Assembly (NCBI GenBank): GCA_965240465.1
Contig: OZ251219.1
Location: forward strand, 416,001 to 480,000
Source of the DNA: a bacterium
Lineage (GTDB): Bacteria > SAR324 > JACQKK01
Reading direction: 5' to 3'
Length of the DNA stretch: 64,000 bases
Of the stretch, positions 5,607-63,249 are shown one piece after another. A program made the translations under genes and the position numbers. Position 1 is the first letter of the stretch, and each line of letters opens with the position of its first letter. Under the pieces are notes generated by a model. It saw only the letters and a list, made by a program, of their open reading frames with translations, made no database searches and was not told where the DNA came from.

Positions 5607-8600
5607 TCAGGGAGTAAAATCCCAGCTTTCTAGGTGCTTGATAAGAGGAAAATAAAGGGCGAGTTTTAAGGGTATTGTTGGCTCTAAGCGATAGAATAAG
5701 TTAGCATAACGCTCTAATTGGGGTTTATGCTTTTCTCTTTGTTGAACTAAAAAGGATGCTAAATCTTGCTGCTGGGGAGTAGCAGTTTTGAAATCCACCA
5801 CCCAGCGAATATTATCTGCGGCTACAAAAGTGCGATCCACAATGGATTGGGATAGAGTGGAATTTTTATTCGCCAAGGCGAAATGATCCAGTCGCAATTC
5901 ACTTTCGGCAGTGGCATGCCGTTGCAATATCCAACGCCCTTGGGGGTCTTCAATGGTATTGAGCAGGGCTTGTATCACCCGTTCGGTAGCAAAATCAAGT
6001 GCCTGAGCAGTGATCTCCAACTGACAAAGATTAGCCCTCACGCACTTTTTGGCTTGCTGGATGATGCTATCCCAATCTTCACTTCGTCCCAGCACCTCCA
6101 GCCAGCGATGGATCTCCACTCCCACCCCACGAGGAACGATGGATCGCGGGTGATTACCCATCTTGGCTAAAGATTGAGATTCTAGCAGTGGCAGTTCTGG
6201 CGATGGCAGTTCTGGCGATGGGGATGCGGTAGTTTGAGATTGCTCGGGGTTGTTTTCGCTTTCATCATCTGAGCCGGGTTTGGCAGCCCCACTGAGTTGT
6301 TCTTCGGTGAGAGGTTTTCCTTGAGGACGGACGTTTTTCAGCGGAGGCGGAGCTTCCCACTGCTGCGGTAATCTCCACAACCAGCCTTCCTTTATGGAGG
6401 AAGCCTCTTCGGTAGCCTCAGGGTTTTTTTCTGTAGAGATGGTAGGGTTATCCTCTGCAGCTCCAGCGTCATGGAGCAATTTCAGCATGGTGCCTGATAT
6501 TGGATTGCCCTGTTTAGCAGTGGTGAGCAATAATCGCTGGCGAGCTCGGGTACAGCCCACATATAGTAGGCGAGCGAGTTCTTTGTCATTTTTGCCCTTA
6601 GATAATTGCTGGATGAATTTATAGACACAGCGATCTTCTTCCTCGCTGGTGACTGGGGCTGGGGCTAGCAATAGGTGTGATTCACTTTTGGTTAGGGCAG
6701 GATATTCCTCCCAGCAGAGCATGTGGTTATAATCATTGCGGCTTCTTCGTTCCAGAGCTGGCAACACGACCCAATCAAATTCCAAGCCCTTAGCTTGATG
6801 GATGCTAAGGACTGCCACCTTTCCAGTTACATTTGGAGGCAATTCCGAGGGTGGTATTTCTCCTAGGCAATCTTTCAGGCGTTCAAAGAATCCTACTGTG
6901 GTTTCCAGAGGGATTTGCCTCAGTTGTTCTAAGAATAGATTGATGTATTCCAAGCCTTTATCGGTAGTTAGGCAGGCGGGACCTCTCAGTTTTAGCCACA
7001 CTTGTTCCAGCCAATCTGTCAGTGATAGGCGTCCCTGTTGCTGCCAAGCCCATTCAAAGGCTACCTGTAGGTGCATCAAAGCCGTTTTTTCTGGGGAGCT
7101 CAGTTGCTTTTTCACGGCAGGGTCTTGCAGGATCTCCCAGATGCTATTTGCAGGCGGATGAGAGCCATTAGCTTTGGAGGGGGGGGTATCCGAGTCAATT
7201 TCAGCCGTATTTACCTCAGTGGCAGCGGATAATTTTTCTGCCAGCATAGTAAGGGTAGCCAGTGAAAAGCCACCCCAAGGAGCCCGCAGAACGCTCATCC
7301 AAGCGAGGGTATCGTGCCGCAGCAACAGAGCTCGGAGCAAAGCTAGAATATCCAGTACTTCTTGTTGTTCTAGCAGACTCGCCCGACGTTCATATTGAAA
7401 AGGTACTCCATGCTCTCGCAAGGCAGATACAATAGTTTCCACATGCTTTTTGGACCTAAACAGAATTGCTATTTGGGCTTGCTTTCCTGAAGCTTGCTTT
7501 ATCCATTCCACAATAGCTTTGGCTTCCTGAGTACTATCATCAGCTAGTTTCCATTCCACCCCTGAGTCCTCATCGGGAGGCTTCACCGCCCGAGCAAAGA
7601 CATGAGCTGCCGTTCCCTCCAGCAAATTGCTCTGCTGGGGGAACACTTTTTGAAACACCCGATTGTGCCAATCCACTAAGGCGGGGACACTGCGGAAATT
7701 AGAGCTCAGTTTGAGTACTTGTGGCTTTAGTTTTCCCAGACCGCGTTCCATCACTCTAACAAACAAGCCAGCCTCCGCCTTGCGAAAGCGATAGATAGAC
7801 TGCATGGGATCTCCCACCAAGAACAAGGTCTGCCTTCCATCCGCTTGCCAGCCCTGCACCAACAATGACAGCATGTCAAACTGAGCGATTGAGGTATCCT
7901 GAAATTCATCCACCAATAAATGGACCAATCGGGCTTGCTCCACATGATTTCCCAGCTGCAAGCAAGGCCGAGCCGATAGCATGATCTCAGTATAATCCAC
8001 TCCTCCTACGGCTTCAAATTCCTGCTTCAGAGCAAGAGATAACTGCCTAAGTACTAGCTGTAAAGTTTCCAAGCTTTCTCTTTCCCAAGGTTGTAAGTTC
8101 ACCCTGCACAAATTGCGTACCTCAGCCAATAAGTTTTCCAGCGATGCTGCCCCCGAGTTGCTAGTTCCCTGGTTATCCCAATCTTTAAGATGTCCTAATA
8201 TCTCGGTCATATCCTTTTTAGCTTCTTCGCTGGTGGTAGGGAATCCGATATTTTTATCCAGCTTCTTACGGAATGTTTCATTTGTTTTAGTTAGCAATAG
8301 TTTACCCAGGGCACGCCAGTATTCCAGTTGTTCTGGTTCTGCGGTGGGTAGCTTTGTCAGGTTAAGCAGGGGTTGGAGGGCCGCGCTATTTGGGGCATTG
8401 TGAGCTGCATGAACCACCAGATTCACCAATGACTGCGATTTTATGCCTTGCTGTAAGAGATATTTCAGGGCGAGCTGCATTTTATTTTGCAGCTGGCTCA
8501 GTTTGACCTGAATGACCTGTTGCAAGACGTTTTCCAAAGCATCCAAGAATTTTGCTGTTGTTTTCGGCGGTTTGGATTTTCCCTTATGGGCAGGGTTATC

Positions 8601-9245
8601 ACTGATGAGGGGGAGCCATTGTTCGCGTTTTTCCAGCAGTTCAACCAGTTGTTTTTCGCATTCGCGGTGGCGATTATTAGAGCGACGTACCAAGCTTTTT
8701 AGAGCCTCAGCTAAGTTAGAATTGCCATCCATTTGGGACATCAAGTTCCGAGCTGCTTGCAGGTAGATTAACTTTGGGTGGGGCAACAAATTTTCTTCTC
8801 CTGAGAGTCGGGCTGTCAGCGGAGTTTGACGCACAATATCCTTCCAGAAGGAATCCATGGTCTTAACTCTGATACTCCAAGGAGCTTTAAGCAGTTGCCA
8901 GCCGTGTTTATGATCATTTTCCAGCACCCTTAGAGCCAGCTTTCGGGTTTGCTCTTGATACCGTGAGTTGATTGGTTGTTTTTGTGCTGCGGCTTGTAAT
9001 TCTTGCCATAGGCGAGAACGCATTTCCCCAGCGGCCTTGCGAGTGAAGGTTATCGCCAACACGGCTTGGGGACGTTCAACTTCTGCCAGCAGTACGAGCA
9101 TACGCTGTACCAGTAGGCTGGTTTTGCCTGCTCCCGCAGGGGCTTGTACAATAAAGGACTGGCGAGGATCTAAGGCTCGCTGGCGGATAGCCTCATCGGG
9201 ACTGCTGGAGGGCGGGCGATTTTCTTTTGGAGAAGATTTATTCAT
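5607..9245 (-). CDS. addA: UvrD-family helicase-nuclease (AddA-like)
   Basis: QAPAGAGKT Walker A, ITFTRKAA, LVDEFQDTS, VGDPMQSIYRFR, SIHQAKGLEF, RLLYVGCTRAR and C-terminal VDR...VDFK nuclease motif. ATG 9245 overlaps the upstream stop. Confidence 0.88.
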   Translation of the reverse strand: MNKSSPKENRPPSSSPDEAIRQRALDPRQSFIVQAPAGAGKTSLLVQRMLVLLAEVERPQAVLAITFTRKAAGEMRSRLWQELQAAAQKQPINSRYQEQTRKLALRVLENDHKHGWQLLKAPWSIRVKTMDSFWKDIVRQTPLTARLSGEENLLPHPKLIYLQAARNLMSQMDGNSNLAEALKSLVRRSNNRHRECEKQLVELLEKREQWLPLISDNPAHKGKSKPPKTTAKFLDALENVLQQVIQVKLSQLQNKMQLALKYLLQQGIKSQSLVNLVVHAAHNAPNSAALQPLLNLTKLPTAEPEQLEYWRALGKLLLTKTNETFRKKLDKNIGFPTTSEEAKKDMTEILGHLKDWDNQGTSNSGAASLENLLAEVRNLCRVNLQPWERESLETLQLVLRQLSLALKQEFEAVGGVDYTEIMLSARPCLQLGNHVEQARLVHLLVDEFQDTSIAQFDMLSLLVQGWQADGRQTLFLVGDPMQSIYRFRKAEAGLFVRVMERGLGKLKPQVLKLSSNFRSVPALVDWHNRVFQKVFPQQSNLLEGTAAHVFARAVKPPDEDSGVEWKLADDSTQEAKAIVEWIKQASGKQAQIAILFRSKKHVETIVSALREHGVPFQYERRASLLEQQEVLDILALLRALLLRHDTLAWMSVLRAPWGGFSLATLTMLAEKLSAATEVNTAEIDSDTPPSKANGSHPPANSIWEILQDPAVKKQLSSPEKTALMHLQVAFEWAWQQQGRLSLTDWLEQVWLKLRGPACLTTDKGLEYINLFLEQLRQIPLETTVGFFERLKDCLGEIPPSELPPNVTGKVAVLSIHQAKGLEFDWVVLPALERRSRNDYNHMLCWEEYPALTKSESHLLLAPAPVTSEEEDRCVYKFIQQLSKGKNDKELARLLYVGCTRARQRLLLTTAKQGNPISGTMLKLLHDAGAAEDNPTISTEKNPEATEEASSIKEGWLWRLPQQWEAPPPLKNVRPQGKPLTEEQLSGAAKPGSDDESENNPEQSQTTASPSPELPSPELPLLESQSLAKMGNHPRSIVPRGVGVEIHRWLEVLGRSEDWDSIIQQAKKCVRANLCQLEITAQALDFATERVIQALLNTIEDPQGRWILQRHATAESELRLDHFALANKNSTLSQSIVDRTFVAADNIRWVVDFKTATPQQQDLASFLVQQREKHKPQLERYANLFYRLEPTIPLKLALYFPLIKHLESWDFTP
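6189..6221. repeat. 15-nt x2 in-frame repeat in addA (SPELP)
   Basis: TGGCAGTTCTGGCGA x2. Confidence 0.85.
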
Positions 9246-12072
9246 CGCTGGCAAATTCAGTTTGGGTTGGCTCAGTTTGGGTTGGCTCAGTTTGGGTTGG
9301 TTTGGCTGTGCTAGAAGCAAGGGATTTATGTTGATGGATACGACAAAACATTTGTAAGCAGCAGCGATCGCAGGCTTGCTGCTGGGGAGAGACGGTGGCT
9401 GTGCCTATGATAAATTCGGATACCAATACTCTGAGTACCGCTTGGATTTCTTCCATTTGATCAACAAAGGAAATTTTTAGAGTACTTTTACCTTGGCTGA
9501 GTATTTTTTGTGGTTGGGACTCCCAGACATCAAATTTCATTTCTTTTTCGCTGATCTTGGCAAATCCAAAGCCTGCCAGAGATTGTTTTTCAGTAAGTAG
9601 TTTTTGGGCATACAGGGGAAGCTGAGGATCTTGGGGGCGTTCACCCATCCAATGTTTGCTATTAGCAGAGCGGCCTATTTTATAATCCAGCAGTACCAGC
9701 GAGCCATCTGATAGCTTGTCCACTCTATCTATGCGACCTGTTAGTTGGAGTTCTCCGATTTTAATTTCCTGCTCTTGTTCCAGCTGCTTAATTTCAAAGG
9801 GGGCATGCTGACGACGCCTCAATTCTTCTTTTAGCCAGAGCAGCATGAGCTTTTCCAGTCTTTGTTGTTCCTGTTCTTTCAGCCATGGGGACAGATTATT
9901 AGGCCAGTCTTGCTCTAGAGCCTCTTTAATGGCATGATGAACAGCAGTTTTCAGTTGTTTTTCTGGTTCCAAGTTGGCAGAGCTTTTGGCTGTTTGCCAA
10001 AACAAATGCAACGCCCGATGCATAAATTTTCCTTGGATTTGGGAATGCAGTCCCGAGATAGCTAGGGGGTCTGACTTGATTTTCAAGCGGTGGTGGGCAA
10101 AGCCTTTGAAGGGACAAGCCGATTGATCCCGCAGTACTGAGACTCCTCCCTTGAGGTTAGTGCCAACGAATTGCGGGGCTTGGCTATCTTTGAGTACCTC
10201 CAGCTGCGGACGCTCCAAGTACATGCGATTAGGCACCCGACTTTCCGCCTTTCTTTCCATTTCTGGCGGGGCAGACCGCGATAAACGTTGCGGATGTTTT
10301 TCCACCACCGACTGCAATAACAAGCTCGGAGTAGTAGGCACTCCCTGCACCTGAGCGGGGGTGCTGAAGACCACCTTTGTAGCACTGCAACACAGACGGG
10401 CAGTGAGTCGCTGGGCGGTTCTTAGGCTGGATTTAGTACTGCTGAATGGTACTCCCCATTGTTGTTGTAGCTTGGCATCTAAGAAGGGATTTAGTTTTTC
10501 TGGCTGAGGCCAGTTTTCGCCATGCACTCCCAGCACCCACAGATAATCAAATTCTAAGCCAGCTGCTTCCTGAATATCCACCACGCTTATGGGTCCCGCT
10601 GGACTGTTAGGGAGAAATCTCTGCTCTTGTACTATTCCTTGTAAGGCTCGCCAAGCAGATTGCCAATCTAGGGATTCCCCTGATACCAGCCCTAAACTAC
10701 TAAATTTATCCAAGCATTCTTGCCAAACCTTCGAGGCTTGAGAAGTACTATTATCCCAATCCGAATCATCACCCATCCACCCCAATAGCTGCAACGATTT
10801 GTGAAATCGCAGTCCCCACTCGGCAAAGCTGGCAGTCTCAGAAATACCTTCCGCCCAGCCCTGCCACTCCTCCATCCGCTTGGAAAGCTCTTCTTTCAGC
10901 AAATAGGGCAATCTGGATACCGACACATTCTCAAAATTGTTTCTCTGTTCCAAGCGTCGCCAGTGTTCCAAGCGTCGCCAGCGTTCTATCTTCCAGCCAG
11001 CTACCTTTCTGGAAGTCAACAAACAATACCAAACCTCAGGAGATACCTTCCCCCCAGGGTGCAACTGGAGTAGCTGCATTGCCCCCCGTACCAAAGAATG
11101 CTCTCCCAGCGGATCCCCCAAAGACATATGAAAAGCCGAACCAGCCGCATCATTAGGCAATTTGCTGGGCTGCAAAACCGACCCCAATAATCGCCTTACC
11201 AAAGGCTCAGCTGGATTAGACATCGCCAAACCAATACGAGCCTCAGAATTATCCAAAGCCAAACCCCTTGCCCAGCGTACCGCTGCCAGTAACTCCTCCT
11301 CCTCATTCTCAAAGGCATCCCCCCTAATCAAAGAAACTCGCCCCCACCGACCACGAGGAATCACCCGTAATTGCACCCCGCGTTCCCGCAAGGCATTCAG
11401 CAACCCTATTTGCACTGGATATAATTGCTCGGCAAATCCTGCCAGCCACAATACCTTTATATCCTTATCTCCCAGACCCCTCCAACCATTTGCCCCCAGA
11501 TCCCTTGCCCCCAGCCCTTTTACTAGCCAGTCCCGTAATCGGTTCTCTAAGCATGCCCTATCCAGCCACCCCTGCTGGCGTAAAAGAACCTCAAAATCTC
11601 GCTTACAGCTCAGAAATAATCGCTGCTCTCTACTACCAGATCCTCCCGATCCAACCTTGCCTAGCCGCTCTTCCGAAAAACCCCAGCTCTGATATAACTT
11701 CCAAGCCTGCCAAGCTTGCCGAGCCTGACCCCCCTCCCCCAAGTTTTCTAACTCCCCAAAACTACCCCCATTCTCCCGCAATATCTGCTGCCACAACCAC
11801 TTGCTCTGAGCACTATTCAAGAGCCAATCCTCCCGAGTATTCTCACTAACAGAAAATCCATAGCAACACGACTGCCATAAATCATCTAGCCAGCCCGCCC
11901 AAGACCAAATCCGAGGAGCTCGCCAAACCCCTGCCGAACCACCCAACTGCTGATACTCACCAAATCGCTGCCGCCAAACGCGTCTAAGATCCACCGATCT
12001 CGTCAAGAGAACATTCCCCTCCGCCAATGAATCGCATACCCGCTGTACTACTTGATTCACTCCTTGCTCCAT
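9238..12072 (-). CDS. addB: AddB-like PD-(D/E)XK nuclease partner with Fe-S-type cysteines
   Basis: C-terminal ACPFK, GRIDRVD, LDYK, PQLPLY and CDRC...C; directly upstream of the AddA-like gene. Confidence 0.8.
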   Translation of the reverse strand: MEQGVNQVVQRVCDSLAEGNVLLTRSVDLRRVWRQRFGEYQQLGGSAGVWRAPRIWSWAGWLDDLWQSCCYGFSVSENTREDWLLNSAQSKWLWQQILRENGGSFGELENLGEGGQARQAWQAWKLYQSWGFSEERLGKVGSGGSGSREQRLFLSCKRDFEVLLRQQGWLDRACLENRLRDWLVKGLGARDLGANGWRGLGDKDIKVLWLAGFAEQLYPVQIGLLNALRERGVQLRVIPRGRWGRVSLIRGDAFENEEEELLAAVRWARGLALDNSEARIGLAMSNPAEPLVRRLLGSVLQPSKLPNDAAGSAFHMSLGDPLGEHSLVRGAMQLLQLHPGGKVSPEVWYCLLTSRKVAGWKIERWRRLEHWRRLEQRNNFENVSVSRLPYLLKEELSKRMEEWQGWAEGISETASFAEWGLRFHKSLQLLGWMGDDSDWDNSTSQASKVWQECLDKFSSLGLVSGESLDWQSAWRALQGIVQEQRFLPNSPAGPISVVDIQEAAGLEFDYLWVLGVHGENWPQPEKLNPFLDAKLQQQWGVPFSSTKSSLRTAQRLTARLCCSATKVVFSTPAQVQGVPTTPSLLLQSVVEKHPQRLSRSAPPEMERKAESRVPNRMYLERPQLEVLKDSQAPQFVGTNLKGGVSVLRDQSACPFKGFAHHRLKIKSDPLAISGLHSQIQGKFMHRALHLFWQTAKSSANLEPEKQLKTAVHHAIKEALEQDWPNNLSPWLKEQEQQRLEKLMLLWLKEELRRRQHAPFEIKQLEQEQEIKIGELQLTGRIDRVDKLSDGSLVLLDYKIGRSANSKHWMGERPQDPQLPLYAQKLLTEKQSLAGFGFAKISEKEMKFDVWESQPQKILSQGKSTLKISFVDQMEEIQAVLRVLVSEFIIGTATVSPQQQACDRCCLQMFCRIHQHKSLASSTAKPTQTEPTQTEPTQTEFASDE
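9257..9300. repeat. 15-nt x3 repeat at the addB 3' end (PTQTE)
   Basis: TCAGTTTGGGTTGGC x3. Confidence 0.92.
10946..10986. repeat. 18-nt x2 in-frame repeat in addB (WRRLE)
   Basis: TGTTCCAAGCGTCGCCAG x2. Confidence 0.88.
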
Positions 12073-12132: not shown

Positions 12133-13551
12133 CTAACAAGCATTCTTACGAGAAATAACCACCCCCAGAGTCTTGAATAAGATAACAAAATCAAACCATA
12201 GCGACCAGTGCTTGATGTAATATAGATCATACTCAATTCGGGTAGCAATTTTTTCTGGGTGGTCGTTATCTCCCCGATACCCATTCACTTGTGCCCAACC
12301 CGTGAGCCCTGGCTTAATGCGATGTCTGAGCATATAGTTGCTAACTTGGCGTTGATATTGATCATCAAAGGCTTCTGCATGCGGACGCGGGCCCACCAAG
12401 GACATATCCCCTTTTAGGACATTCAATAGTTGCGGCAGTTCATCCAAGCTGAAAGAGCGTAGCCATCCCCCAATGGAGGTGAAGCGTTCATCCCCTTTAT
12501 GAGCATATTTTAAGGATTGACCTTTTTTTTCCTTGTGTAACTCCATGGTGCGAAATTTATACAACCAGAAAGAACTGCCCTTCAGTCCCACCCGCTTTTG
12601 AGTGAATAATACCGGCCCCTTAGAAGTCGCCCATACCGCCAAAGACACCAACAACCATAACCACGATAATGATAACAACAACAACACCGCTAATACCTTA
12701 TCCATCAGCCACTTTAGCACGTGCTGAGTACCCTCCAAAGGCGAGTCCGATAAACATAAAACCGGCAGTCCACCTAATTCTCTCACGCTCTGAGTTAACA
12801 AATTAAGCATCCCCATCTTTGGAACCCAATGCACGCTGACATTCGCCCGTAGTAAGACTGGCATCCACTTTAAGAGCAGTCCACTTTGTGGTAGCGGCAA
12901 ATGCAAATAAACCATGTTCACTGGAAATCGCTGCAGAGTTTCTTCCAGCTGCTCGATCCCTCCCAAGCATTTCAATCCCCCCTTGCTAACCTTCACCCCC
13001 AACGATGACTTTACCTCCAAATAACCCAAGGGACGAATCCCATACCACCAATTAGCCTCCAGACGCTCAGCTACCTCAATCGCACCCGAGCTAGATGAAA
13101 TAATCAAAGCCCCCCTAAGATTGTACCCCATACGACGCATCAAGTACAAAACCAACGTGATCACATAATAATCAAGTACCTGAAACACAAATGCCATCAC
13201 CACCCAAACCGATAACGCCTGACGAGAATAAAGTGCCGTACTCTTGGTTCCCCAACCCACCAATAACAATACCCCCAATACCAATAACCAAGCCCTGAGC
13301 GTCTTCCCTACCTGATACACCAAACTTCCCAGCCGCAAGTTTTGGTACACCCCCCCCACCCGATATATCAATAACAGCAACAGAATGCTCAGTACCACCA
13401 ACGGATAATACTTCTCATGGAATTCTCCATCGCGCCAATAAACTGCCCCATACAATATCCCCATGGTGACTACCAGATCCAATAGCTGCTGCAGCCCTCC
13501 AATGGAAGGCTCGTAGCTACGCCTTAAAAATCCCTTTGTTGCTATTTTCAT
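12133..13551 (-). CDS. Undecaprenyl-phosphate glucose phosphotransferase (WcaJ-like)
   Basis: N-terminal TM helices; YKFRTM, SLDELPQLLNVLKGDMSLVGPRP, KPGLTGWAQVNG, YDLYYI..WS. Confidence 0.92.
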   Translation of the reverse strand: MKIATKGFLRRSYEPSIGGLQQLLDLVVTMGILYGAVYWRDGEFHEKYYPLVVLSILLLLLIYRVGGVYQNLRLGSLVYQVGKTLRAWLLVLGVLLLVGWGTKSTALYSRQALSVWVVMAFVFQVLDYYVITLVLYLMRRMGYNLRGALIISSSSGAIEVAERLEANWWYGIRPLGYLEVKSSLGVKVSKGGLKCLGGIEQLEETLQRFPVNMVYLHLPLPQSGLLLKWMPVLLRANVSVHWVPKMGMLNLLTQSVRELGGLPVLCLSDSPLEGTQHVLKWLMDKVLAVLLLLSLSWLWLLVSLAVWATSKGPVLFTQKRVGLKGSSFWLYKFRTMELHKEKKGQSLKYAHKGDERFTSIGGWLRSFSLDELPQLLNVLKGDMSLVGPRPHAEAFDDQYQRQVSNYMLRHRIKPGLTGWAQVNGYRGDNDHPEKIATRIEYDLYYIKHWSLWFDFVILFKTLGVVISRKNAC

Positions 13552-13684: not shown

Positions 13685-16624
13685 TCAAAGAGAATCTAAA
13701 TCTGGCTCATCCAATTCTGCCAGCATTGCCTCACGCACCTGAGCCGAAAGTTTCACCGTGGCTTGCCAATCCTTTCCACTAGGCTGGATGCCCGTCAGCA
13801 ATTTAACTTGCAATTTGGAGAATTGTGGTTGCCAGCGTCCTAAACGGAGCATATCTCGTACCCCTTTCAGCACCACCGGGATGACTGGTACTCCTAATCG
13901 GGCGGCGGCTGAAAAAGCTCCCAGCCGAAATTGCTTCAGCCCAGGCTGACGCGTAATAGCACCTTCGGGAAATACCATTAATCCACCGCCTTCTTGCAAT
14001 ACCGAATCCAGTAAGACAGCTTGAGTACCTTTTTCCGAGTCAAGTTGTGCTACAAACACCGTCTGCAGGCGACCCAAAAACCAGCCCAAAAAAGCCGACT
14101 TAGTTAAATCTGCCTTGGCAACAAAACGCACCGACCGCGATAAAACTGCGACCAATACTAGGCTATCCAAATAACTAGTGTGATTACTTACCAGCACAAA
14201 AGCCCCCGTTTTAGGAACATTCTCCTTACCCTGCACCCGAGGAAAAACCCCTCCTAGCTTCAGCAAAATGCGTGATAACCAGCTTAAGCAAGCATAACGC
14301 CAAGAAACTCGCCCTAGTATTCCAAAGCATGCCATAGGCAAAAACAAGCACCCCCATAGCCATACATAAGACCCATAACTCCATCTCAATAACCCCGAAA
14401 AAACACGATGAACATATCGCCTTCTCGTTCCCAAAAAAGTACCCCTACTACTGCCCCCTAAGCTGCCTCTTAGGCGTCCTTGAAGATACAATTCCCGCAT
14501 AGATTGACGGCGAATCTTACCACTGGAAGTCTTTAACACTGACTTCGGCTTGAGAAACAAAACCTCATCCACTCCGCTATCCCAAACACTAAGAGCCAAA
14601 GCACTCACCTGCAACCGCAATTTATCTAGCTCTATTTCATCGGAAACCCGCGTTTCCAGGGCGGCTATCACTCGCTCGCTGCCGATGGCCGTATCTAAAA
14701 CTCCAAACACCACCACGCAACCCCTCCGTACCCCCTTTAATCTTCCCAAAGTCACCTCCAGCAAATGAGGATGTAAATTACGCCCCGCCCGTACAATAAC
14801 ATCCTTATCCCTTCCCGTGACATAAACCTCGCCCCCAGACAAATAACCCCGATCGCCAGACTGCAACCAGCCATCCTTACCATATAAACCTGCCGTCTGT
14901 TTCGGATTGAGATAATATCCCTCCGTTGCCGAAGGCCCCCGAAATTGTAACAAGCCCTCCCGCCTTTCTGCCAATTCTGCCCCCCGATAATTCACCACCC
15001 GTACCTCATGTCCTGATAAGGGCATCCCACAGCTGACTACCTCCATCGCTCCCCTCTCCAAAGGAACTTCCAAACCCCCCGCCGCTCGCAAACACGCCAA
15101 ACCCCTAGCCTCAAAAACCTCCTTATCAATCTGCTCTACCCGCACTCCCCGCTCCGCCCCAGAAAAAGCCAACCCCACCGAACACTCTGCCAAACCATAC
15201 ACCGGCATCAAAGCCCTAACTGATAAACCACTATCAGCAAAACGATGCCAAAATCGCCTCAGTGTATCCGCCAAAACAGGCTCCGCTCCGTTGAACGCAT
15301 AACGCCAACTTTTCAAGTTTAATCCAGACACCATTCTATGCTTACCCACCGTCTGGCGTAAGCATAACTCATAAGCAAAATTAGGGCCCCCAGAAATGGT
15401 ACCGCCAAAGGAACTGAGAACCTCCAGCCACCGCATCGGGCGTGTTAAAAAACTAAAGGGAGACATCAAACCCAAGGGAATGCCATGGTAAAGACTGCCT
15501 AGCCAAGCTCCAATCAATCCCATATCATGATACAAAGGCAGCCAGCTCACAAATCGGTCTGAGGGGCTAACCTGCAAAGCCTTCCCCATTGCCCGAATGT
15601 TTGCCAGCAACTGAGCATGAGTCAACATTACTCCCTTAGGATCCCCCGTACTACCAGAGGTGTACTGCAAATGTGCCAGTGAATTAGCACTCGGTTGCTT
15701 CCAATCTCCCAACTGCCACTCTCCTCGCTGACTACCGCCCCGAGATTTGCCTCCCCGAGATTTGCCTCCCCAAGATTTGCCTCCCCGAGATTTGCCTCCC
15801 CGATTTGCCTGCGTCATCAACCGCTGCGGAGTAGTCAACCTCCGTAAAAACGGACTTAAATCCTTCATGACATTTCCCAAATCCAAGTTTTCAGCTGGGG
15901 TGATCAGCATCCCGATCTTAGCCTGATGCAATATCTGACCATGCCTTTTAATGTACTCGGCTGCCTGATTAGCCCTAAAAGGAGGATACAAGGGTACTGG
16001 GACGCCCCCCGCCAGCAAAACCCCAAAAAAACAGCAGAGATATTCCCGCCCAGTCGGAAGCATAATGGCAACTGGTTCAGCATCCCGTAAGCCCTCCATC
16101 CTTAAGCCCCAAGCCAACTCAACCGCGCCATCCCACAAACCCCGATAACTCAAATCCTCTCCCGCACCATCAAAAAAACGTACATGCAAATGCTCGCCCG
16201 AATGCTCCACCCGCCACCGCAAGACCTCCACTAAGGTGCCCGCCCGATGCGGTGACTTGCTACTCCCTACCTCCAAAAATGCCCGTGTTTCTCCCGATTG
16301 CCTACCCAGCTTCCCCTGCTCTGATGGCTTCATTTGTGCCGTTCTCGCCCGTAGCCCCGAGAGCAAATCTCCCGGAGTACGGGCCTCAGCCAGAATCTCT
16401 GATGGTGGCAGAAAACCAAATTCGCCCTCTATCCTTTGCCACAACTCCACCCGACCGAGGCTATCGAGCCCTAGTTCTTCATCCAAGTGGGTCCCTAAGT
16501 CCACTGCCACTGGCAGTCGCTGAGGATGTAATTGACGCGATAATTCAGTGATCAAGCCCAGCAAAATTTCTGCCTCGGAAGCCGGATTTTTTTTATTTTT
16601 TTCGCTAGCTGAAGAATAAGCCAT
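13685..16624 (-). CDS. ACP + fatty-acyl-AMP-ligase-like adenylation domain + PlsC-type acyltransferase fusion
   Basis: LGLDSL phosphopantetheine site; [47 protein letters not shown] (HX4D) and FPEG. Confidence 0.9.
15738..15810. repeat. 15-nt x4+ in-frame repeat (RGGKS)
   Basis: CCCCGAGATTTGCCT x4 plus a partial copy. Confidence 0.93.
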
Positions 16625-16826: not shown

Positions 16827-18260
16827 TTAATCATGTTTTAGCTTATTCTCTTCTAAAAAAGGTAGTATCTCTCCCATTAGCCAAAAAGAGCCTGTCGCCA
16901 CGAGGGGTAGCTGCGGTCTGTGAAAAGCTTCTTTCAGGGTTTCTGCAACGCTGTCAAAAGTGAGTATCGGTACTGGCAAAGACCCGAGGAATTCTTTTAA
17001 TTGGCTCGGGGATGCTATTTTATCTTGGTTTATGGGGCTAGGGAGCAGGGCTGGAAGCAGAACCCGTTCAGAATGTCGCAGCACATTGTTGAGAGAACGG
17101 CGAATAGAGCTGGTGAGACGCTCCTTAGCTAGCACCAGTAAAATTTGATTAGGGATCAGTTTCCATTGTCGTAGTTGGCGTGCTAGGGCTGCCAGTGCTT
17201 GAGGATTGTGAGCTCCATCCAGCAGAATGGATTTAAGAGGCTGGGGTGGGGGCTGAGCTGCTGGGGGCTGAGCTGCTGAGGACTGAGCTACTGGTGACCA
17301 CTCTGTCGTAGGCAAACCGAAGTTACACCTGAGGTCAAGGCGAGCGGGTAAATGTACTTGGCAGAGGGCTGGCAGCCATTTTTGTCGTTGTGAGGCATTT
17401 GCTGATTGCCACAGGCTCCAGCCTACTGCCAGAGCATTAGCCAGGGCTGCCTGCCATGGAGGGGTTTGCTGCTGAGAGAAAGCCAGCTTGCTTTTACTAA
17501 TCATGCCATCTGGCCAACGAACACTGATGCGATTTTCCTGCCTTTTTATTTGAATAAGTCGGGCTGGAATCAGGCGACATTTTTGGTGTCTTAGCTGAGT
17601 ACTCATCCAGTTTTCCAACTGAGGGTTTTGGGCTGCCAGCACCACCAAGCCATTGTGAGCAATTCCCATTTTTTGGGTGGCGATCTGTCGCAAGCTATGC
17701 CCCAAGATGGCTTGATGATCCAATCCCAAGCGGGTTATTACTGCCACTTCTTTGGGGATGGCATTGGTAGCATCGGCTACCCCTCCTAGTCCTGTTTCCA
17801 GTACTGCCCAATAAGTTTGATTATCGGTTCGGCAGTTGTCAAAAGCCACCATGGCGGTAGCAGTGAGTAAATCAAAAAACGAGCAATCGGTCTTTAACTG
17901 ACGAGCAGCTACTAACACTGGACGGGCAGCTGCCACAAAATCTGCTCGGCTGAGGCTATGACCGCCCCAAGCAATGCGTTCCCGTAATTCCATCAAATGA
18001 GGAGAAGTGAATAATCCCCCTGGGGTACCCGTGTGGACTTCCAGCAGGCGAGCAATCAGGGTGCTGGTAAGTCCCTTGCCATTGGTACCTGCCACATGGA
18101 TTATCTTAAATCCCTTCTCCGGCGAACCCAATATCTGCAATAGCTGTCGGACTACTCCCAGCCTTTGAGGACCCGCTTGCCTCACCGTCCGAGTAGAAAT
18201 TAACTCTCCCGCAAGCTGCTCATATTCTAAATCGGGCAGTCTACTCCTTCCAACGAGCAT
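16827..18260 (-). CDS. folC: Folylpolyglutamate synthase/dihydrofolate synthase
   Basis: IHVAGTNGKG, FTSPHL, LETGLGG, DATN, LDGAHNP, TGSFWL. Confidence 0.9.
   Translation of the reverse strand: MLVGRSRLPDLEYEQLAGELISTRTVRQAGPQRLGVVRQLLQILGSPEKGFKIIHVAGTNGKGLTSTLIARLLEVHTGTPGGLFTSPHLMELRERIAWGGHSLSRADFVAAARPVLVAARQLKTDCSFFDLLTATAMVAFDNCRTDNQTYWAVLETGLGGVADATNAIPKEVAVITRLGLDHQAILGHSLRQIATQKMGIAHNGLVVLAAQNPQLENWMSTQLRHQKCRLIPARLIQIKRQENRISVRWPDGMISKSKLAFSQQQTPPWQAALANALAVGWSLWQSANASQRQKWLPALCQVHLPARLDLRCNFGLPTTEWSPVAQSSAAQPPAAQPPPQPLKSILLDGAHNPQALAALARQLRQWKLIPNQILLVLAKERLTSSIRRSLNNVLRHSERVLLPALLPSPINQDKIASPSQLKEFLGSLPVPILTFDSVAETLKEAFHRPQLPLVATGSFWLMGEILPFLEENKLKHD
17248..17292. repeat. 15-nt x3 in-frame repeat in folC (AAQPP)
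   Basis: GGGGGCTGAGCTGCT x2 plus a variant. Confidence 0.85.
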
Positions 18261-21408: not shown

Positions 21409-21526
21409 AATTGGGGTAGCTAATTTTTTACTAGCCAGGGACACCTAAGTCCAACTATACAATTAAGCTTAAGGGAGAGCATTGCCTCATAAGATTAAGG
21501 GAGAGCATTGCGGTACTAAGGTCATT

Positions 21527-45008: not shown

Positions 45009-48000
45009 ATGCGAAGGATAGAAATATTCACCAAGTCATCCTACCCAGATCCCCTCGGGGAGAAATTAAAGCAACGCATCAATAAAGAAAGCAAATTCAC
45101 TCTAAAAAACCTAAGAACTGCTAATATCTACAAGATGGCTGATGATTTTCTGCCCTCCCAGTCACCTGAAAATCTACGCCAACTAGGTCAGGAATTATTT
45201 GCCGATCCAGTGCTTTCCCAGTGCTGTGTCAATGGCGAGCTGCTAAGAGAACCAGACTTTGACTGGTATGTAGAGGTAGGTTTCAAGCGTGGGGTAACCG
45301 ACAGCCTCGGACGCACCGCTCAAGAAAATCTCTGCTGGCGTTGCAACATCCCCACCCCCCCCATTCAATCGGTGTTCAGTACCCAGGGTTATTTCCTATT
45401 CCTAAGCAATGAATTAGACAAAGATGAAATCCTCTACCTAGCTGAAAACTGGATGGCTAATCCGCTGGTGCATGATGTAGACCCTTTGTCTAAGCAGGAG
45501 ATAGAGTTCATCAATGATTATTTGGCAAAAACAGAATACAAGAACATAACTCATGATAAAATATTCGTTGATCTGCCATCACAATTTTTCTCCTTACCCC
45601 AAGTAGAATTAAGTGCTCCGTCCATTAAATTACACCTACTTGATGTCACCAACCCACAACCGCTGTCTGAGGATATATTGCTATTCTTGTCTAGGGATAG
45701 AACGCTAGCCTTGTCTGAAGAGGAACTCAAAGCCTTGGTGAACCATTTCATTAGCCCAAAAATCCAAGAGCAGCGAAAAAAAATAGGCTCGGAGGAATTC
45801 TTTACTAATGTGAAGCTGGAAGAATGCATTACCGATGTGGAGCTAGAAGTACTGGCACAAACTTGGAGTGAACACTGCCTGCATAAGATATTCAAGGCTC
45901 GCATTCACTATCAAGAGGGATCTGAAAAACCCAGCTGTATTAATTCCCTATTTGATACTTATATTAAAGGAGCGACCCAAGCGATCCGCAAAAAACTAGG
46001 CCAGCGAGACCACTGCTTATCGGTATTTGTGGATAATGCGGGAGTTATGCTTTTGGATGATAATTGGGGCTTGGCAGTTAAGGTGGAAACTCATAATACG
46101 CCTTCGGCACTGGATCCCTATGGGGGAGCTTTAACGGGCATTTTAGGGGTTAATCGGGATGCCTTTGGAACTGGCAGAGGGGGTAAGTTAATATTCAATA
46201 CCGATGTATTTTGCCTAGCTCCGCCTGATGATGATCCACCGATCGGTAGTGATTTATTAGCCCCTAGTCGTATCATGGAGGGGGTCATTCGGGGGGTGGA
46301 GCATGGAGGAAATGTATCTGGCGTACCTACGGTAAATGGCTCCCTGTGTTTTGATGCCCGCTTTATGGCTAAGCCGCTAGTTTTCTGTGGCAGCGGAGCC
46401 TTGATTCCTCGCCAGTTGGGGGGTCGTCCAGGGCATGAGAAATGGGTCGCAGTCGGAGATTTAGTTGTCATGTGCGGGGGACGCATTGGTCGGGATGGCA
46501 TCCATGGGGCAACTATTTCCTCGCAGGAACTCAAGCGGGACATTCCCTTAGGGGTGGTGCAAATTGGGGATCCCATCACCCAAAAGAAGCTGTTTGATTT
46601 CCTCCTCCTAGCCCGCGATCGGGGCTTATTTAATGCCATCACCGATAATGGTGCGGGGGGATTATCTTCTTCGGTAGGAGAAATGGCGATCATGAGCGGA
46701 GGGGCAAAATTGCACTTAGAGCGTGCTCCCTTAAAATACAAGGGCTTGCAGCCTTGGGAGATTTTGCTTTCTGAATCCCAAGAACGCATGACTCTGGCAG
46801 TTCCTCCGGCCCAAGAAAAAGAGCTTTTGCAGCTGGCAGCAGAAATGCAGGTAGAGTGTACCGTACTAGGTGAATTTACTGACTCGGGGCAATTTGTCAT
46901 TTATCATAAGGGAAAAATAGCAGGCTACTTGGATATGGATTTCCTCCATCACGGCACACCCCAGATGGAACTGAAAGCCGAATGGAAGGCCCCAGTTTAT
47001 CATCCTGAGTTTTCATCAAAGCCTGCCCCCGCTGGTGACCTAACCGCTTGGCTACTACGAGTGCTAGGACGCTTAAATGTGTGTAGTAAGGAGAGCATTG
47101 TGCGTCAATACGATCATGAAGTACAAGGATGCTCGGTGATAAAGCCTCTTTGCGGTGAAGGTCAAGATGGTCCCAGTGATGCTGCCGTACTGAGGACAAG
47201 CCCCGATAGCCCTGCTGGCATTGCGATAGCCCATGGCATTTGCCCTCGCTACGCCGATTGGGACACCTACAACATGGCTGCCTGTGCTATGGATGAGGCA
47301 GTACGCTCCTTGGTGGCAGTGGGTGCTGATCCCAGTCACGCGGCGGCTTTGGATAATTTCTGTTGGTGCGACCCTTTACCGTCTGCCAGCAATCCTGATG
47401 CCAGCTATAAAACGGCTCAATTAGTACGGGCCGCCCGAGCTCTTTATGACACCGCTTGTGCCTACCAAATTCCCTTTATCTCGGGCAAGGACAGCATGAA
47501 AAACGACTTTGTGATGGGTAATTTCCGCCTATCCATTCCTCCCACCGTGCTGGTCACTGCCGTTGCCGTTGTCCCCGAGGTACAAAGAGCGATTTCCATG
47601 GACGTCAAAAAACCCGGCGATTTGGTTTATATCATCGGACGCAGCAGGGGAGAAATGGGTGGCTCTGAGTTCCTAGCCGAATTCTTGCCAGCAAAACATA
47701 CCGAAAAGAACCTATCCTCCGCTGATTCCCATCCTCCCAAACTTTACGGACATCCCCCGAAAACTTATCCTGAGGAACATCTGAAAATATATCAAAAGAT
47801 GTATAACGCCATCCAAAAGGGTTGGATTTGCTCTGCTCATGATTGCTCCGATGGCGGTGCTGCCGTTGCTTTGGCAGAGAGTGCCTTCGCGGGAGGCTAT
47901 GGCATGCGGCTCCAGCTAAAAGCTTGGATAAAGAAGGAAAAACTCCCTCTGGCACAACTGCTTTTTTCGGAAAGCCCCGGGCGTTTGATTGTAACCATTA

Positions 48001-48179
48001 GACCACAGCACCAAAAATCCTTTGAAGAAAAATTCGCAGAGACCTCCTATTGCTTGCTAGGCAAGGTTACCGAAGACCAAAATTTCACTGCCTTAAACGA
48101 AAAATCCACCAGCCTGAATACTACTTTAGAAACCCTTAAAAAAACTTGGCAAGAACCCCTTAAGCACTCCCCCCCTTAA
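45009..48179 (+). CDS. purL: Phosphoribosylformylglycinamidine synthase subunit PurL
   Basis: QTWSEHC.HK, VETHN.PS, GRDGIHGA, DNGAGG, SESQERM, QYDHEVQ, SGKDSM, HDCSDGG. Confidence 0.95.
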   Translation: MRRIEIFTKSSYPDPLGEKLKQRINKESKFTLKNLRTANIYKMADDFLPSQSPENLRQLGQELFADPVLSQCCVNGELLREPDFDWYVEVGFKRGVTDSLGRTAQENLCWRCNIPTPPIQSVFSTQGYFLFLSNELDKDEILYLAENWMANPLVHDVDPLSKQEIEFINDYLAKTEYKNITHDKIFVDLPSQFFSLPQVELSAPSIKLHLLDVTNPQPLSEDILLFLSRDRTLALSEEELKALVNHFISPKIQEQRKKIGSEEFFTNVKLEECITDVELEVLAQTWSEHCLHKIFKARIHYQEGSEKPSCINSLFDTYIKGATQAIRKKLGQRDHCLSVFVDNAGVMLLDDNWGLAVKVETHNTPSALDPYGGALTGILGVNRDAFGTGRGGKLIFNTDVFCLAPPDDDPPIGSDLLAPSRIMEGVIRGVEHGGNVSGVPTVNGSLCFDARFMAKPLVFCGSGALIPRQLGGRPGHEKWVAVGDLVVMCGGRIGRDGIHGATISSQELKRDIPLGVVQIGDPITQKKLFDFLLLARDRGLFNAITDNGAGGLSSSVGEMAIMSGGAKLHLERAPLKYKGLQPWEILLSESQERMTLAVPPAQEKELLQLAAEMQVECTVLGEFTDSGQFVIYHKGKIAGYLDMDFLHHGTPQMELKAEWKAPVYHPEFSSKPAPAGDLTAWLLRVLGRLNVCSKESIVRQYDHEVQGCSVIKPLCGEGQDGPSDAAVLRTSPDSPAGIAIAHGICPRYADWDTYNMAACAMDEAVRSLVAVGADPSHAAALDNFCWCDPLPSASNPDASYKTAQLVRAARALYDTACAYQIPFISGKDSMKNDFVMGNFRLSIPPTVLVTAVAVVPEVQRAISMDVKKPGDLVYIIGRSRGEMGGSEFLAEFLPAKHTEKNLSSADSHPPKLYGHPPKTYPEEHLKIYQKMYNAIQKGWICSAHDCSDGGAAVALAESAFAGGYGMRLQLKAWIKKEKLPLAQLLFSESPGRLIVTIRPQHQKSFEEKFAETSYCLLGKVTEDQNFTALNEKSTSLNTTLETLKKTWQEPLKHSPP

Positions 48180-48205
48180 GCACTCCCGCCCCTTAAGCAC
48201 TCCCC
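48156..48205. repeat. 16/17-nt x3 repeat spanning the purL stop codon
   Basis: CCCTTAAGCACTCCC(C/G) x3. Confidence 0.9.
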
Positions 48206-50732: not shown

Positions 50733-50836
50733 TTCTTCTTTATGCATTCTTCTTTATGTGTCCTTCTTCGTGTGTTCTTCTTTATGTTGTCTCACTAGTA
50801 CTTTCTTATCTGCACATTCTTCTTTATGTTGTCTCA
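50733..50836. repeat. 14-nt degenerate intergenic repeat
   Basis: TTCTTCTTTATG.. x4, plus a second TTCTTCTTTATGTTGTCTCA copy. Confidence 0.8.
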
Positions 50837-52483: not shown

Positions 52484-52706
52484 CCTAACCGAGTTACTGC
52501 CTAACTGATTTGCTACCTACCCGAGTTACTGCCTACCCGAATTACTACCTACCCGAGTTACTGCCTACCCGAATTACTGCCTAACTGATTTGCTACCTAC
52601 CCGAGTTACTGCCTACCCGAATTACTGCCTAACTGATTTGCTACCTACCCGAGTTACCACCTACCCGAGTTACCTACCCGAATTACTACCTACCCGAATT
52701 ACTGCC
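52484..52706. repeat. 16-nt x14 intergenic repeat with 48-nt higher-order structure
   Basis: CCTACCCGA(G/A)TTACT(G/A) units interleaved with CCTAACTGATTTGCTA. Confidence 0.95.
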
Positions 52707-55693: not shown

Positions 55694-55779
55694 ATTGTGA
55701 GATAAATGTGAAGATATTGTGAGAGAAATGTGAAGATATTGTGAGAGAAATGCGAAGATATTGTGAGAGAAATGCGAAG
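55694..55779. repeat. 22-nt x4 intergenic repeat
   Basis: ATTGTGAGA(T/G)AAATG(T/C)GAAGAT x4. Confidence 0.94.
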
Positions 55780-55948: not shown

Positions 55949-56293
55949 CTCAGTACTTCTACTATTTCTTTTTCTTTATTGCACTCTATCTATTTTGTTT
56001 GCATCTATTTTATTTGCCTTTATTTTGTTTGCTCCCTTTTATCTGTTTGACATTTTCTGCTTCCTGTGTTCTCTGGTTAATAAAGTCAGGGCTACTTTGC
56101 AGATTAGTATTTTAGAGTGTCATCAGCAAGCACTCCCGCACAGTAGCCGAACCTAGGGGGCAGTTTTCATCATTTTATCTGGCAGTTTTCCTTTAGTTCC
56201 ATGGCAACCAATTACTTGTCAAGACTTTGTTCACGTCATATATTCAATTTAGACCTGGTGATACTGGCTTAAATATCCCTATTAAGAGTCCCT

Positions 56294-58734: not shown

Positions 58735-58802
58735 CCGATTGCTGGGGGTTGCCGATTGCTGGGGATTGTCAATTATTGGGACTTGCTAATTGCTGGGGAT
58801 TG
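58735..58802. repeat. 17-nt x4 degenerate intergenic repeat
   Basis: CCGATTGCTGGGG(G/A)TTG and variants. Confidence 0.85.
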
Positions 58803-58872
58803 CAATCCCTACCTAAAAGATAGACTGATAAAATAAATCATTCATTCAAGTTCACAGTTGGTATTTTTTGCT

Positions 58873-60518: not shown

Positions 60519-60690
60519 ATTGTTTCCGAATCGTTTCTGATTTGACAATTGCCATTAATTTGACTACCCTTTGTCCACCTGAGTTCAAACTTGATCCTTA
60601 GAGTTTGACCAAGGATGGTCGGCTATTTCCATTGCTTTGGGAATATTTTTGCGGGATGTTTTTGCGGGATGCTGTAAGCGACTCATCGGT

Positions 60691-60760
60691 GGGATTCGGA
60701 TACACACTGCGGGATTCGGATATGCTGTGAGATTCGGATATGCTGTGAGATTCGGATACA
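60691..60760. repeat. 18-nt x4 repeat upstream of recA
   Basis: G(G/A)GATTCGGATATGCTGT and variants. Confidence 0.9.
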
Positions 60761-61946: not shown

Positions 61947-61980
61947 AAGTGGGCAAGCAAAAAAGACGTGAGACAGGTTA

Positions 61981-62100
61981 AAAACGGGCAAAGACAGGCA
62001 GATACGGGCAAAGACAGGCAGATACGGGCAAAGACAGGCAAAGACTGGCAGATACGGGCAAAGACTGGCAGATACGGGCAAAGACAGGCAGATACGGGTA
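61981..62100. repeat. 10-nt x12 repeat (20-nt period) between recA and selU
   Basis: AAGAC(A/T)GGCA alternating with GATACGGGCA. Confidence 0.94.
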
Positions 62101-63184: not shown

Positions 63185-63215
63185 AAAATGGGACTAAGCA
63201 AAATATTGTGGCATA

Positions 63216-63249
63216 TTACGCCATGGTTCATACTTACGCCATGGTTCAT
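63216..63249. repeat. 18-nt x2 intergenic repeat
   Basis: TTACGCCATGGTTCAT(AC) x2. Confidence 0.82.

Follow-up and report, generated by a model that had tools for sequence, protein, structure and literature searches.

The window analysed here is a 64-kb stretch of a bacterial chromosome of the SAR324 lineage (G000:C1:416001-480000; assembly GCA_965240465.1, contig OZ251219.1, forward strand; G000 denotes the window's genome), and its subject is a series of about 30 short tandem arrays scattered through both genes and spacers. G000 is a single-contig metagenome assembly of 1,599,138 bp, with a guanine-plus-cytosine (GC) content of 45.4% and a marker completeness of 83.6%. Our own gene calls, which are crude and based on open reading frames (ORFs), gave 1206 genes and 87.4% coding sequence. 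The window is ordinary chromosome. Its Pfam matches include secA, S-adenosylhomocysteinase, an AddA/AddB-type helicase-nuclease pair, comEC, dnaX, recR and purL, as well as mnmE, zwf, pgl, trpS, NAD kinase, recA, a Dam-type methylase and a run of Sel1-repeat genes, and a 16S rRNA gene lies on the same contig outside it. A first-pass annotation had proposed from the arrays that a sequence-independent process copies about 15 nt of local DNA in tandem genome-wide, and that selection keeps only frame-preserving copies in genes. We confirm the observation and support that interpretation in substance.

Tandem Repeats Finder (TRF) returned 61 rows in the window at a score of at least 30, and 29 merged arrays at a score of at least 50. 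With the lower threshold, 27 of the 30 starts listed earlier have a row at the same position or no more than about 22 nt away; these are 13 of the 14 loci described as in-frame and 14 of the 16 described as intergenic or stop-spanning. The other three are not full arrays but marginal direct repeats of 10-17 nt with a spacing of 14-26 nt and about 1.7 copies, identified by direct reading. They comprise a 10-nt repeat with 15-nt spacing (about 1.7 copies) at 11490..11524, for which TRF gave no row, a 17-nt repeat with a 9-nt spacer (period 26, about 1.65 copies) at 21465..21507, and a 10-nt repeat with 14-nt spacing (about 1.7 copies) at 27076..27100, upstream of a Sel1 gene. TRF detected additional arrays at 1093, 13255 and 45791. 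Counted as exact tandem duplications (at least two copies, units of 10-60 nt), the window holds 26.

Many of the TRF arrays lie within genes, which we identified by their Pfam matches. The AddA/UvrD-type helicase gene (5607-9320, minus strand) carries two perfect arrays, one of 15 nt x 2.2 (6189..6221) and one of 15 nt x 2.9 at its N-terminal end (9257..9300), and the neighboring PD-(D/E)XK nuclease gene (AddB-like, 9238-12072, minus strand) carries one of 18 nt x 2.3 (10946..10986). Further minus-strand genes with arrays encode a sugar transferase (12133-13551; the additional array of 15 nt x 2.3 at 13255..13290), an AMP-binding/acyltransferase protein (13685-16624; 15 nt x 4.4 at 15738..15803), a protein without Pfam match (16827-18260; 15 nt x 3.2 at 17247..17294) and a ComEC-type competence protein (22737-24455), which has both a 12 nt x 2.7 array with a TRF score of 43 (24061..24092) and an 18 nt x 2.8 array (24364..24413). 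On the plus strand, we found an array of 15 nt x 5.3 close to the N-terminal end of a Sel1-repeat protein (25531..25609, encoding KTRTQ five times), one of 21 nt x 2.5 (29563..29615) in a nickel-insertion gene (PF01969, 28717-30066), one of 15 nt x 5.1 (30212..30288, encoding QTLSV five times) following the hydrophobic N-terminal stretch of a beta-propeller protein, and one of 21 nt x 2.0 (40278..40318) in an adenylate/guanylate cyclase gene (39495-41303). A purL-type gene (45009-48179) contains the additional array of 27 nt x 2.2 (45791..45849), and a second one of 16 nt x 3.1 (48156..48205) runs across its stop codon.

Of special interest is dnaX (42618-44351). It carries two arrays on the plus strand: 15 nt x 3.2 at 43788..43835, which encodes three DKIER-type repeats and is an insertion relative to the orthologue of the sister species G001, and a perfect 15 nt x 8.9 at 43990..44123, which encodes DPVLT nine times and at which short-read contigs break. 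The DPVLT repeats align opposite a conserved C-terminal stretch starting DPRW in the orthologues of G001, G009 and G011, and, judging from this alignment, the array may have replaced part of the tau C-terminus. A search with DnaX for related loci matched distant relatives only, at no more than 44% identity.

The remaining arrays lie at gene ends or between genes. Three touch the end of a gene: an array with a 29-nt higher-order unit (15+14) x 5.1 spans the stop codon of the gene at 30088-31779 (31777..31926), one of 13 nt x 4.4 lies at the 3' end of the minus-strand gene at 36271-37200 (36232..36288), and one of 15 nt x 2.6 crosses the 3' end of the minus-strand gene at 41431-42369 (41406..41444). 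Intergenic arrays comprise 17 nt x 3.9 (21343..21409, also seen by direct reading), 14 nt x 3.9 (50733..50787), 22 nt (2 x 11) x 3.9 (55694..55779), 15 nt x 3.0 (55988..56032), a degenerate 17 nt x 3.9 with 73% matches (58738..58803), a perfect 13 nt x 2.0 (60646..60671) and 18 nt x 2.2 (63212..63249; TRF consensus unit 17 nt). The window's longest array, also intergenic, consists of 16 nt x 14 (52484..52706) and has a higher-order unit of 48 nt x 4.7. A perfect array of 18 nt x 2.6 (60713..60758) is found upstream of recA, and one of 20 nt x 6.2 (61980..62098; higher-order 50 nt x 2.2) between recA and a rhodanese-domain gene.

Six Sel1-repeat protein genes are clustered within 24554-36206 of the window, with three other genes between them, and two genes have SocA/Panacea antitoxin domains; Pfam matches of this Sel1/SocA group were also noted at 3125-3601 and 32295-32756. 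Eukaryote-like repeat proteins of this kind, in a genome about half as large as those of its relatives, may point to a host-associated life. A gene for a D12-class N6-adenine DNA methyltransferase (Pfam; 63313-63999) is cut by the window end.

In the window, the frame rule is strict. Using the merged arrays at the higher threshold and our own gene calls, the period is divisible by 3 in all 15 genic arrays (15, 18, 21 or 27 nt) and in 5 of the 14 non-genic ones (Fisher p = 2e-4). As the earlier reading had it, nearly every array also has its own unit; by circular 12-mer comparison, the unit at 43990 alone has a partner elsewhere.

Both properties extend to the whole chromosome. At a TRF score of at least 50, G000 contains 648 merged arrays (0.405/kb), 531 of them with units of up to 60 nt. 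By the definition used for the window, its exact tandem duplications number 567; a random genome of equal size from a second-order Markov model has 4, which excludes chance. Of 245 genic arrays, 231 have a period divisible by 3; the same holds for 62 of 202 intergenic arrays and for 25 of 84 at gene boundaries (87/286 non-genic in all; Fisher p = 4e-57), and the 14 genic exceptions rest on the crude gene calls. Array density is 0.175/kb in coding and 1.0-1.4/kb in non-coding DNA, where arrays are thus 6-8 times denser. The proposed independence of sequence is borne out as well: of the 456 arrays whose units measure 12-30 nt, 432 have no circular 12-mer in common with another array, and the unit-sharing pairs number 12 where about 7 are expected by chance. 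No shared flank motif was seen around 26 young non-genic duplications, which were inspected by eye without a motif search.

The suggested unit of about 15 nt could be refined. Exact non-coding arrays peak at 13-14 nt (12 nt, 22; 13 nt, 46; 14 nt, 48; 15 nt, 18; 17 nt, 7), and exact genic arrays are dominated by 12 nt (85) and 15 nt (69), as expected of one spectrum filtered for frame. Exact 7-8-nt duplications are close to random expectation (110 vs 91 at 7 nt, 47 vs 32 at 8 nt). Among the short-unit arrays 109 of 531 are perfect, and the rest grade down to about 73% matches; these perfect arrays, the 121 isolated perfect two-copy duplications and the graded decay indicate, at the level of sequence, that duplication is ongoing. 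Genic arrays contain 29.7% A (28.0% in all genes) and non-genic arrays 25.6% (background 29.1%), and the latter are also richer in GC than their background (47.0% vs 41.8%). The GC skew of the units, 0.42, is slightly above the 0.36 of random k-mers and correlates weakly with the local skew (r = 0.22), and we discarded strand composition as an explanation.

G000 additionally has 117 long-period arrays (61-479 nt) that cover 65.8 kb, or 4% of the genome. The 25 longest are mostly found within genes coding for 500-2600 aa. Among the long-period arrays is a perfect one of 194 nt x 4 (536375-537157). At a larger scale and outside the window (G000:C1:255696-271494), one rnhA gene is complete, and behind it come four fragments of the RNase H C-terminus, about 40 aa long and each terminated by a stop codon. 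The fragments are spaced by about 3.0-3.5 kb, with a first gap of about 5 kb, and giant repeat-protein genes adjoin them. This row looks like a tandem segmental duplication on the kilobase scale.

We compared these densities with those of nine relatives, of which G018 was represented by 38 kb. Exact duplications amount to 0.355/kb in G000 and 0.22/kb, in a 400-kb sample, in G001 (same genus, 1.72 Mb, 16S 94% identical). The values fall to 0.061 (G008), 0.017 (G009) and 0.011 (G004) in the same family and to 0.010 (G019), 0.026 (G021) and 0.010 (G027) in the same order, and an Escherichia coli control gave none in 50 kb. Seven larger relatives have 6-35 times fewer exact duplications than G000, and a density similar to that of G000 was absent from 7 of the 8 relatives sampled. 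The full G001 contig contains 458 TRF arrays (0.266/kb), with a unit spectrum like that of G000 (12 nt, 74; 13 nt, 53; 14 nt, 49; 15 nt, 108) and the same frame rule (divisible by 3 in 159 of 182 genic vs 102 of 252 non-genic arrays). Its presence in the sister species makes the trait a property of the genus, whose genomes measure 1.6-1.7 Mb compared with 2.3-5.3 Mb in the relatives.

Could the arrays, or the repeat-poor and repeat-rich domains described below, be an artefact of assembly, polishing or strain mosaicism? G000 is a single-contig metagenome assembly, and a related strain is present in the same sample: in the run X2, a second contig at 41017-41099 has a depth of 13-23 against about 70-86 and several differences over about 80 nt (about 10%), and a second such stretch lies at 45374-45389. 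However, artefacts would ignore the reading frame that 231 of 245 genic arrays respect. We also examined short-read contigs of two public runs of one sample, probably the source sample, with a depth of about 60-150-fold in the region. These independent contigs contain the short arrays whole and stop exactly at the long ones (44013-44120, 48175, 52540-52628 and 58735-58768), as expected of k-mer assembly at real tandem repeats. Run X3 contained no part of the stretch, an absence that carries no weight as evidence. Moreover, G001 was assembled separately, displays a clean single-peak cumulative GC skew, and has the same unit spectrum, frame rule and GC-linked domains. The arrays are genuine, and an artefactual origin is extremely improbable.

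In one respect, the idea of a genome-wide process needs correction: the process is not uniform along the chromosome. In G000, density ranges from 0-4 to 15-31 arrays per 32 kb, and about one third of the chromosome has 5-fold fewer. Three poor domains, which we picked from the array counts themselves (32-256, 992-1152 and 1344-1504 kb, 544 kb in total), hold 0.085 arrays/kb as opposed to 0.46 elsewhere (5.4-fold). The drop is about 5-fold for both genic (0.048 vs 0.242 per kb) and non-genic arrays (0.358 vs 1.92), and the perfect fraction, the period and the percent match are equal in poor and rich domains. Since genic and non-genic arrays drop alike and are of the same kind, the domains differ in the rate of gain or loss rather than in array kind or tolerance. 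This argues for a difference in mutation input rather than selection.

Density also follows base composition and replication geometry. With the arrays masked, G000 density rises with GC at third codon positions (rho 0.63, p 1e-6) and between genes (rho 0.52), and shows no correlation with GC at first and second positions (rho 0.09). The relation is step-like, with 0.11 arrays/kb in the lowest quartile of regional GC and about 0.40 in the other three. In G001 the correlation reaches rho 0.79 with third-position GC (20 samples) and 0.73 with masked GC (86 bins). The dnaA gene of G000 lies at 605 kb, at the minimum of the cumulative GC skew, and among 79 axes tried the density map shows its best mirror symmetry about the 1400/600-kb axis (rho 0.66 and 0.51). 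In G001, the skew puts the origin close to 0 and the terminus close to 900 kb; few arrays lie within about 250-300 kb of either, density is high in the middle of both arms, and the GC profile is likewise two-lobed (about 0.46-0.47 near origin and terminus, 0.51-0.55 mid-arm). In both genomes, then, the density domains follow replication geometry. These domains, hundreds of kb long and of about 5-fold contrast, and a density that tracks silent-site GC and is mirror-symmetric about the origin-terminus axis are the new findings of this study.

Gene content can be dismissed as the cause of the domains, because homologous regions behave in opposite ways (22 arrays at 1300-1320 kb of G001 against 1 in the 1060-kb bin of G000). 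Gene orientation showed no significant effect: arrays per kb in head-on and co-directional genes are 0.191 vs 0.161 in G000 (p = 0.18) and 0.134 vs 0.107 in G001 (p = 0.14). Neither genome has a leading-strand gene bias (co-directional vs head-on coding sequence, 740 vs 660 kb in G000 and 747 vs 763 kb in G001). One possibility, offered as conjecture, is a position-dependent regime of recombination or repair that would raise silent-site GC and duplication together.

The domains also bear on the proposal that positive selection retains or even drives the arrays, the genic ones as new disordered linkers or surface segments and the intergenic ones as regulatory RNAs or contingency switches, such that density would reflect benefit rather than an unusual mutation rate. 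The 231 in-frame arrays occupy 184 of the 1206 genes, with 48, more than their share, in the first tenth of the protein, and their peptides are enriched in P (2.2-fold), E, T, K, S, A and G and poor in hydrophobic residues. Variable surfaces could be of benefit in a host-associated life, such as the many Sel1-repeat genes suggest, and strong selection on amino-acid repeats is argued in the accessible part of the paper on the tandem repeats of Borgs, archaeal extrachromosomal elements (Schoelmerich et al., 2023; PMC9879509). Yet arrays are most dense in non-genic DNA, where divisibility by 3 is at the chance rate, units share nothing between loci, and arrays decay to 73-80% matches. Housekeeping genes such as dnaX, addA, purL and comEC carry them, and the poor domains, in which genic and non-genic arrays drop by the same factor, do not match between the two species. 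We consider selection improbable as the driver.

How arrays are born may be read from the youngest ones. Exact two-copy runs in G000 number 395, of which 121 are isolated, outside degenerate arrays. A flanking partial repeat of at least 3 nt accompanies 56 of these 121, one of 1-2 nt 26, and none 39, where a null model gives 7.7, 48.9 and 64.5, respectively. Births are thus partly, not wholly, associated with microhomology. The narrow unit lengths resemble target-site duplication, which together with the duplications lacking microhomology could point to the footprints or targets of mobile elements or recombinases (target-site duplications left after excision, or insertion of a reverse-transcriptase or integrase-like type). 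We nevertheless found no RVT_1 reverse transcriptase in any of the five genomes searched (transposases were not inventoried) and, by eye, no common motif flanking the young non-genic duplications, and arrays reach 14 copies and often have flanking partial repeats of varied length. A mobile-element origin appears very unlikely.

We also searched for a cause in the repair genes. As to the genes that the first-pass annotation had singled out, mutS, mutL and polA are present, and Ku, an ATP-dependent ligase, a Y-family polymerase and a reverse transcriptase were not found in G000 or G001; neither were MutS2, RecQ and the DnaQ-family exonucleases. Defects in flap endonuclease, as in yeast rad27 and in 5'-nuclease mutants of E. 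coli polA, give a known duplication mutator phenotype: short tandem duplications with 3-12-bp flanking repeats that arise in Okazaki-fragment processing. Pol I frames with an intact 5'-3' exonuclease domain are open in both genomes (986 aa in G000, 948 aa in G001) and RNase HI is encoded, so a defect of this type is not evident. Several losses can be rejected as the cause. The DnaQ-family exonuclease (PF00929) is missing in G000, G001 and G008 but also in 15 of 29 relatives outside the genus, and its loss is not sufficient; RecQ was not found in G000, G001 and G008 and only weakly in G009, and its loss is not specific; the Y-family polymerase is absent in the genus and equally in G009. MutS2 is absent in the genus and present in three larger relatives.

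The family has two UvrD-type helicases, and the genus retains the divergent one alone (439-440 bits with the pcrA model; 612-662 for the canonical paralogue). Of the 29 relatives outside the genus, 26 have the canonical PcrA/UvrD, which was not found in G000 or G001, the two complete genomes of the genus. Nor was it detected in G005, G012 and G018, of which G005 and G018 belong to one genus. A rival reading is that an enzyme sets a ruler for the first duplication: two nicks or incisions a fixed 12-14 nt apart would be followed by fill-in or strand displacement and religation of the displaced piece, and slippage would then expand the duplication. The UvrABC excinuclease releases a 12-13-nt oligomer, and UvrB and UvrC are present in both G000 and G001. 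In one version, this oligomer, displaced for want of the canonical UvrD/PcrA, would be ligated behind the repair patch and produce a tandem duplication one patch long. The narrow peak of non-coding units (13-14 nt in G000, 12-15 nt in G001) the 39 of 121 young duplications without microhomology and the missing canonical helicase would fit. On the other hand, the observed mode is about 1 base longer than the patch, 56 of the 121 births do carry microhomology, and no Ku or ATP-dependent ligase was found for end-joining versions. The lack of a detectable canonical paralogue in G018, G005 and G012 also counts against it. We know of no published case of repair-patch duplication, and we regard such an enzyme as unlikely.

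The cause that we consider most likely, with moderate confidence, is short-range misalignment during replication or repair, combined with slippage and filtered by selection. The arrays and their statistics, the frame filter, the restriction to one lineage and the domain structure are observed; from them we infer the molecular steps, misalignment and slippage, and the cause of the raised rate. The arrays would be minisatellites of local origin, produced by the replication or repair machinery of the cell itself. A short stretch, mostly of 12-16 nt, would be copied head to tail by short-range misalignment or by a template switch of a DNA end, with some births exploiting microhomology of a few bases. 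From two copies onwards, slipped-strand mispairing would add or remove whole units, and point mutation would slowly erode the array. Selection would purge nearly all frame-shifting arrays and about half of the in-frame ones; the survivors in genes would encode short repeats rich in proline, threonine, serine, glutamate and lysine, placed for the most part in linkers and close to N-termini. In this genus of reduced genomes the input of new arrays would be raised, and it would vary along the chromosome with the position relative to origin and terminus of replication.

Several observations weigh against this explanation. The 39 of 121 duplications without microhomology are left uncovered by a purely microhomology-mediated birth, and simple slippage does not predict a non-coding unit length as narrow as 13-14 nt; the lengths published for slippage or microhomology duplications cover broader ranges, for instance 55-92 bp (PMC8639346). 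The supply of microhomology differs by 1.06-1.43-fold between poor and rich domains against 5.4-fold for the arrays, and we reject it as the cause of the domains. Mismatch polarity relative to fork direction is significant in G000 (p = 0.009) and absent in G001 (p = 0.99). G000 encodes Pol I with its 5' nuclease, MutS, MutL, RecJ, exonuclease VII, RNase HI, RecA, RecR and AddAB, and no gene loss tested explains the raised rate: the repeat-poor G027 (0.010/kb) is also without DnaQ-family exonucleases, and G018, which lacks the canonical helicase, has 0 exact duplications in its 38 kb (a small sample of a fragmented assembly), so that helicase loss alone is probably insufficient.

Generic slippage predicts neither the 13-14-nt ruler nor the microhomology-free births nor the GC-linked domains with their replication symmetry, and these leave room for a more specific process. 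In its broadest form, a distinct, length-ruled process belonging to a particular step of replication or of excision repair would, in this genus, copy 12-16 nt independently of sequence. Its rate, set by position relative to origin and terminus, would create repeat-rich and GC-rich compartments on the megabase scale; it would generate disordered segments in about 15% of proteins, and may also operate in Borgs. We hold this only as a tentative, minority view beside misalignment and slippage. The arrays have placed new repeat peptides in 184 of the 1206 genes, dnaX, addA and comEC among them, which is a visible route to de novo disordered protein segments in bacteria; under the explanation we prefer, ordinary copying error filtered by selection keeps supplying proteins with flexible segments.

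A literature search that did not extend to subscription journals found no published account of tandem repeats in the SAR324 lineage, and looking for the divisible-by-three rule in bacterial genomes brought up the Borg papers first. Among the known bacterial systems, variable-number tandem repeats are copy-number-variable loci that arise by slipped-strand mispairing and are tolerated if the frame is kept. Contingency loci have 1-9-nt units that switch genes, and repeats of the mycobacterial interspersed repetitive unit (MIRU) type have 40-100-nt units in families with a shared consensus. The G000 units differ from both in being 12-16 nt long, mutually unrelated and spread over hundreds of loci. 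Phase-variation microsatellites can be rejected, because units are 12-21 nt long and keep the frame in genes, and 7-8-nt duplications are near random. So can interspersed repeats of the repetitive extragenic palindromic (REP), miniature inverted-repeat transposable element (MITE) or clustered regularly interspaced short palindromic repeat (CRISPR) type, because units are unrelated and copies stand head to tail without spacers.

Two further systems can be compared. Like G000, Ehrlichia ruminantium has a small chromosome (about 1.5 Mb) and a high load of tandem repeats that expand and contract. According to the part of its description available to us, it has the lowest bacterial coding ratio known (about 64%), and its repeat process is aimed at non-coding regions (PMC10710844); in contrast, G000 is 87% coding, and 245 of its 531 short-unit arrays lie inside genes. 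For fission yeast (Schizosaccharomyces pombe), the accessible text on microhomology-mediated tandem duplication reports that long GC-rich microhomologies duplicate far more often, gives examples of 55-92 bp and puts the E. coli frequency at 1/20 of that of the yeast (PMC8639346). As far as this source goes, the two systems have in common a head-to-tail local copy, in part of the G000 births a short bounding repeat, a preference for GC-rich sequence, an enrichment of in-frame events in essential genes and an expected reversion, and the GC preference of the non-genic arrays fits the yeast result. The G000 duplications differ in their far narrower range of 12-16 nt, in the 39 of 121 without microhomology and in being fixed at 0.36/kb.

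A close parallel is offered by the Borg elements of Methanoperedens, with which the first-pass annotation had compared the arrays; the likeness holds for density and rules, and fails for unit length and base composition. Borgs are described as carrying pervasive tandem repeats of unknown mechanism (Schoelmerich et al., 2023; PMC9879509), and what follows refers to the accessible part of that paper, including part of its Table S14. Under the Borg criterion (perfect arrays of at least 50 nt and at least 3 units, no mismatch), G000 has 122 regions of 10,619 bp in total, or 0.66% of 1.60 Mb, and Black Borg 56, or 0.68% of 0.90 Mb. In both, units are unique to their locus, arrays occur in genes and spacers and are rare in related genomes, and the amino-acid repeats are rich in disorder-promoting residues. 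All Borg ORF arrays and 14-38% of intergenic ones are divisible by 3, compared with 94% and 31% in G000. Borg arrays are flanked by partial repeats; in G000 this applies, at 3 nt or more, to 56 of the 121 isolated duplications, and 39 have none. The carrier is different, a linear archaeal extrachromosomal element on one side and a bacterial chromosome with 16S, dnaA, recA and dnaX on the other. Units in G000 have a mode of 15 nt (Borg criterion) or 13-14 nt (non-coding), whereas those of Black Borg are mostly 15-35 nt; the adenine enrichment of Borg units is not seen in G000, and most G000 arrays are degenerate (109 of 531 perfect), unlike Borg arrays as described. GC-linked domains symmetric about the replication axis are found in G000, and the accessible text describes none for Borgs. 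More generally, three properties constrain the mechanism in G000, namely the 13-14-nt ruler, the 5-fold regional modulation and the link to silent-site GC and to origin and terminus, and we found none of them described for Borgs in that text. Pervasive locus-unique repeats, presented as a hallmark of Borgs, are now seen with equal density and rules in a bacterial chromosome and its sister species, and with two complete genomes, repeat-poor relatives and known origins, the question of their mechanism becomes open to ordinary comparative genomics.

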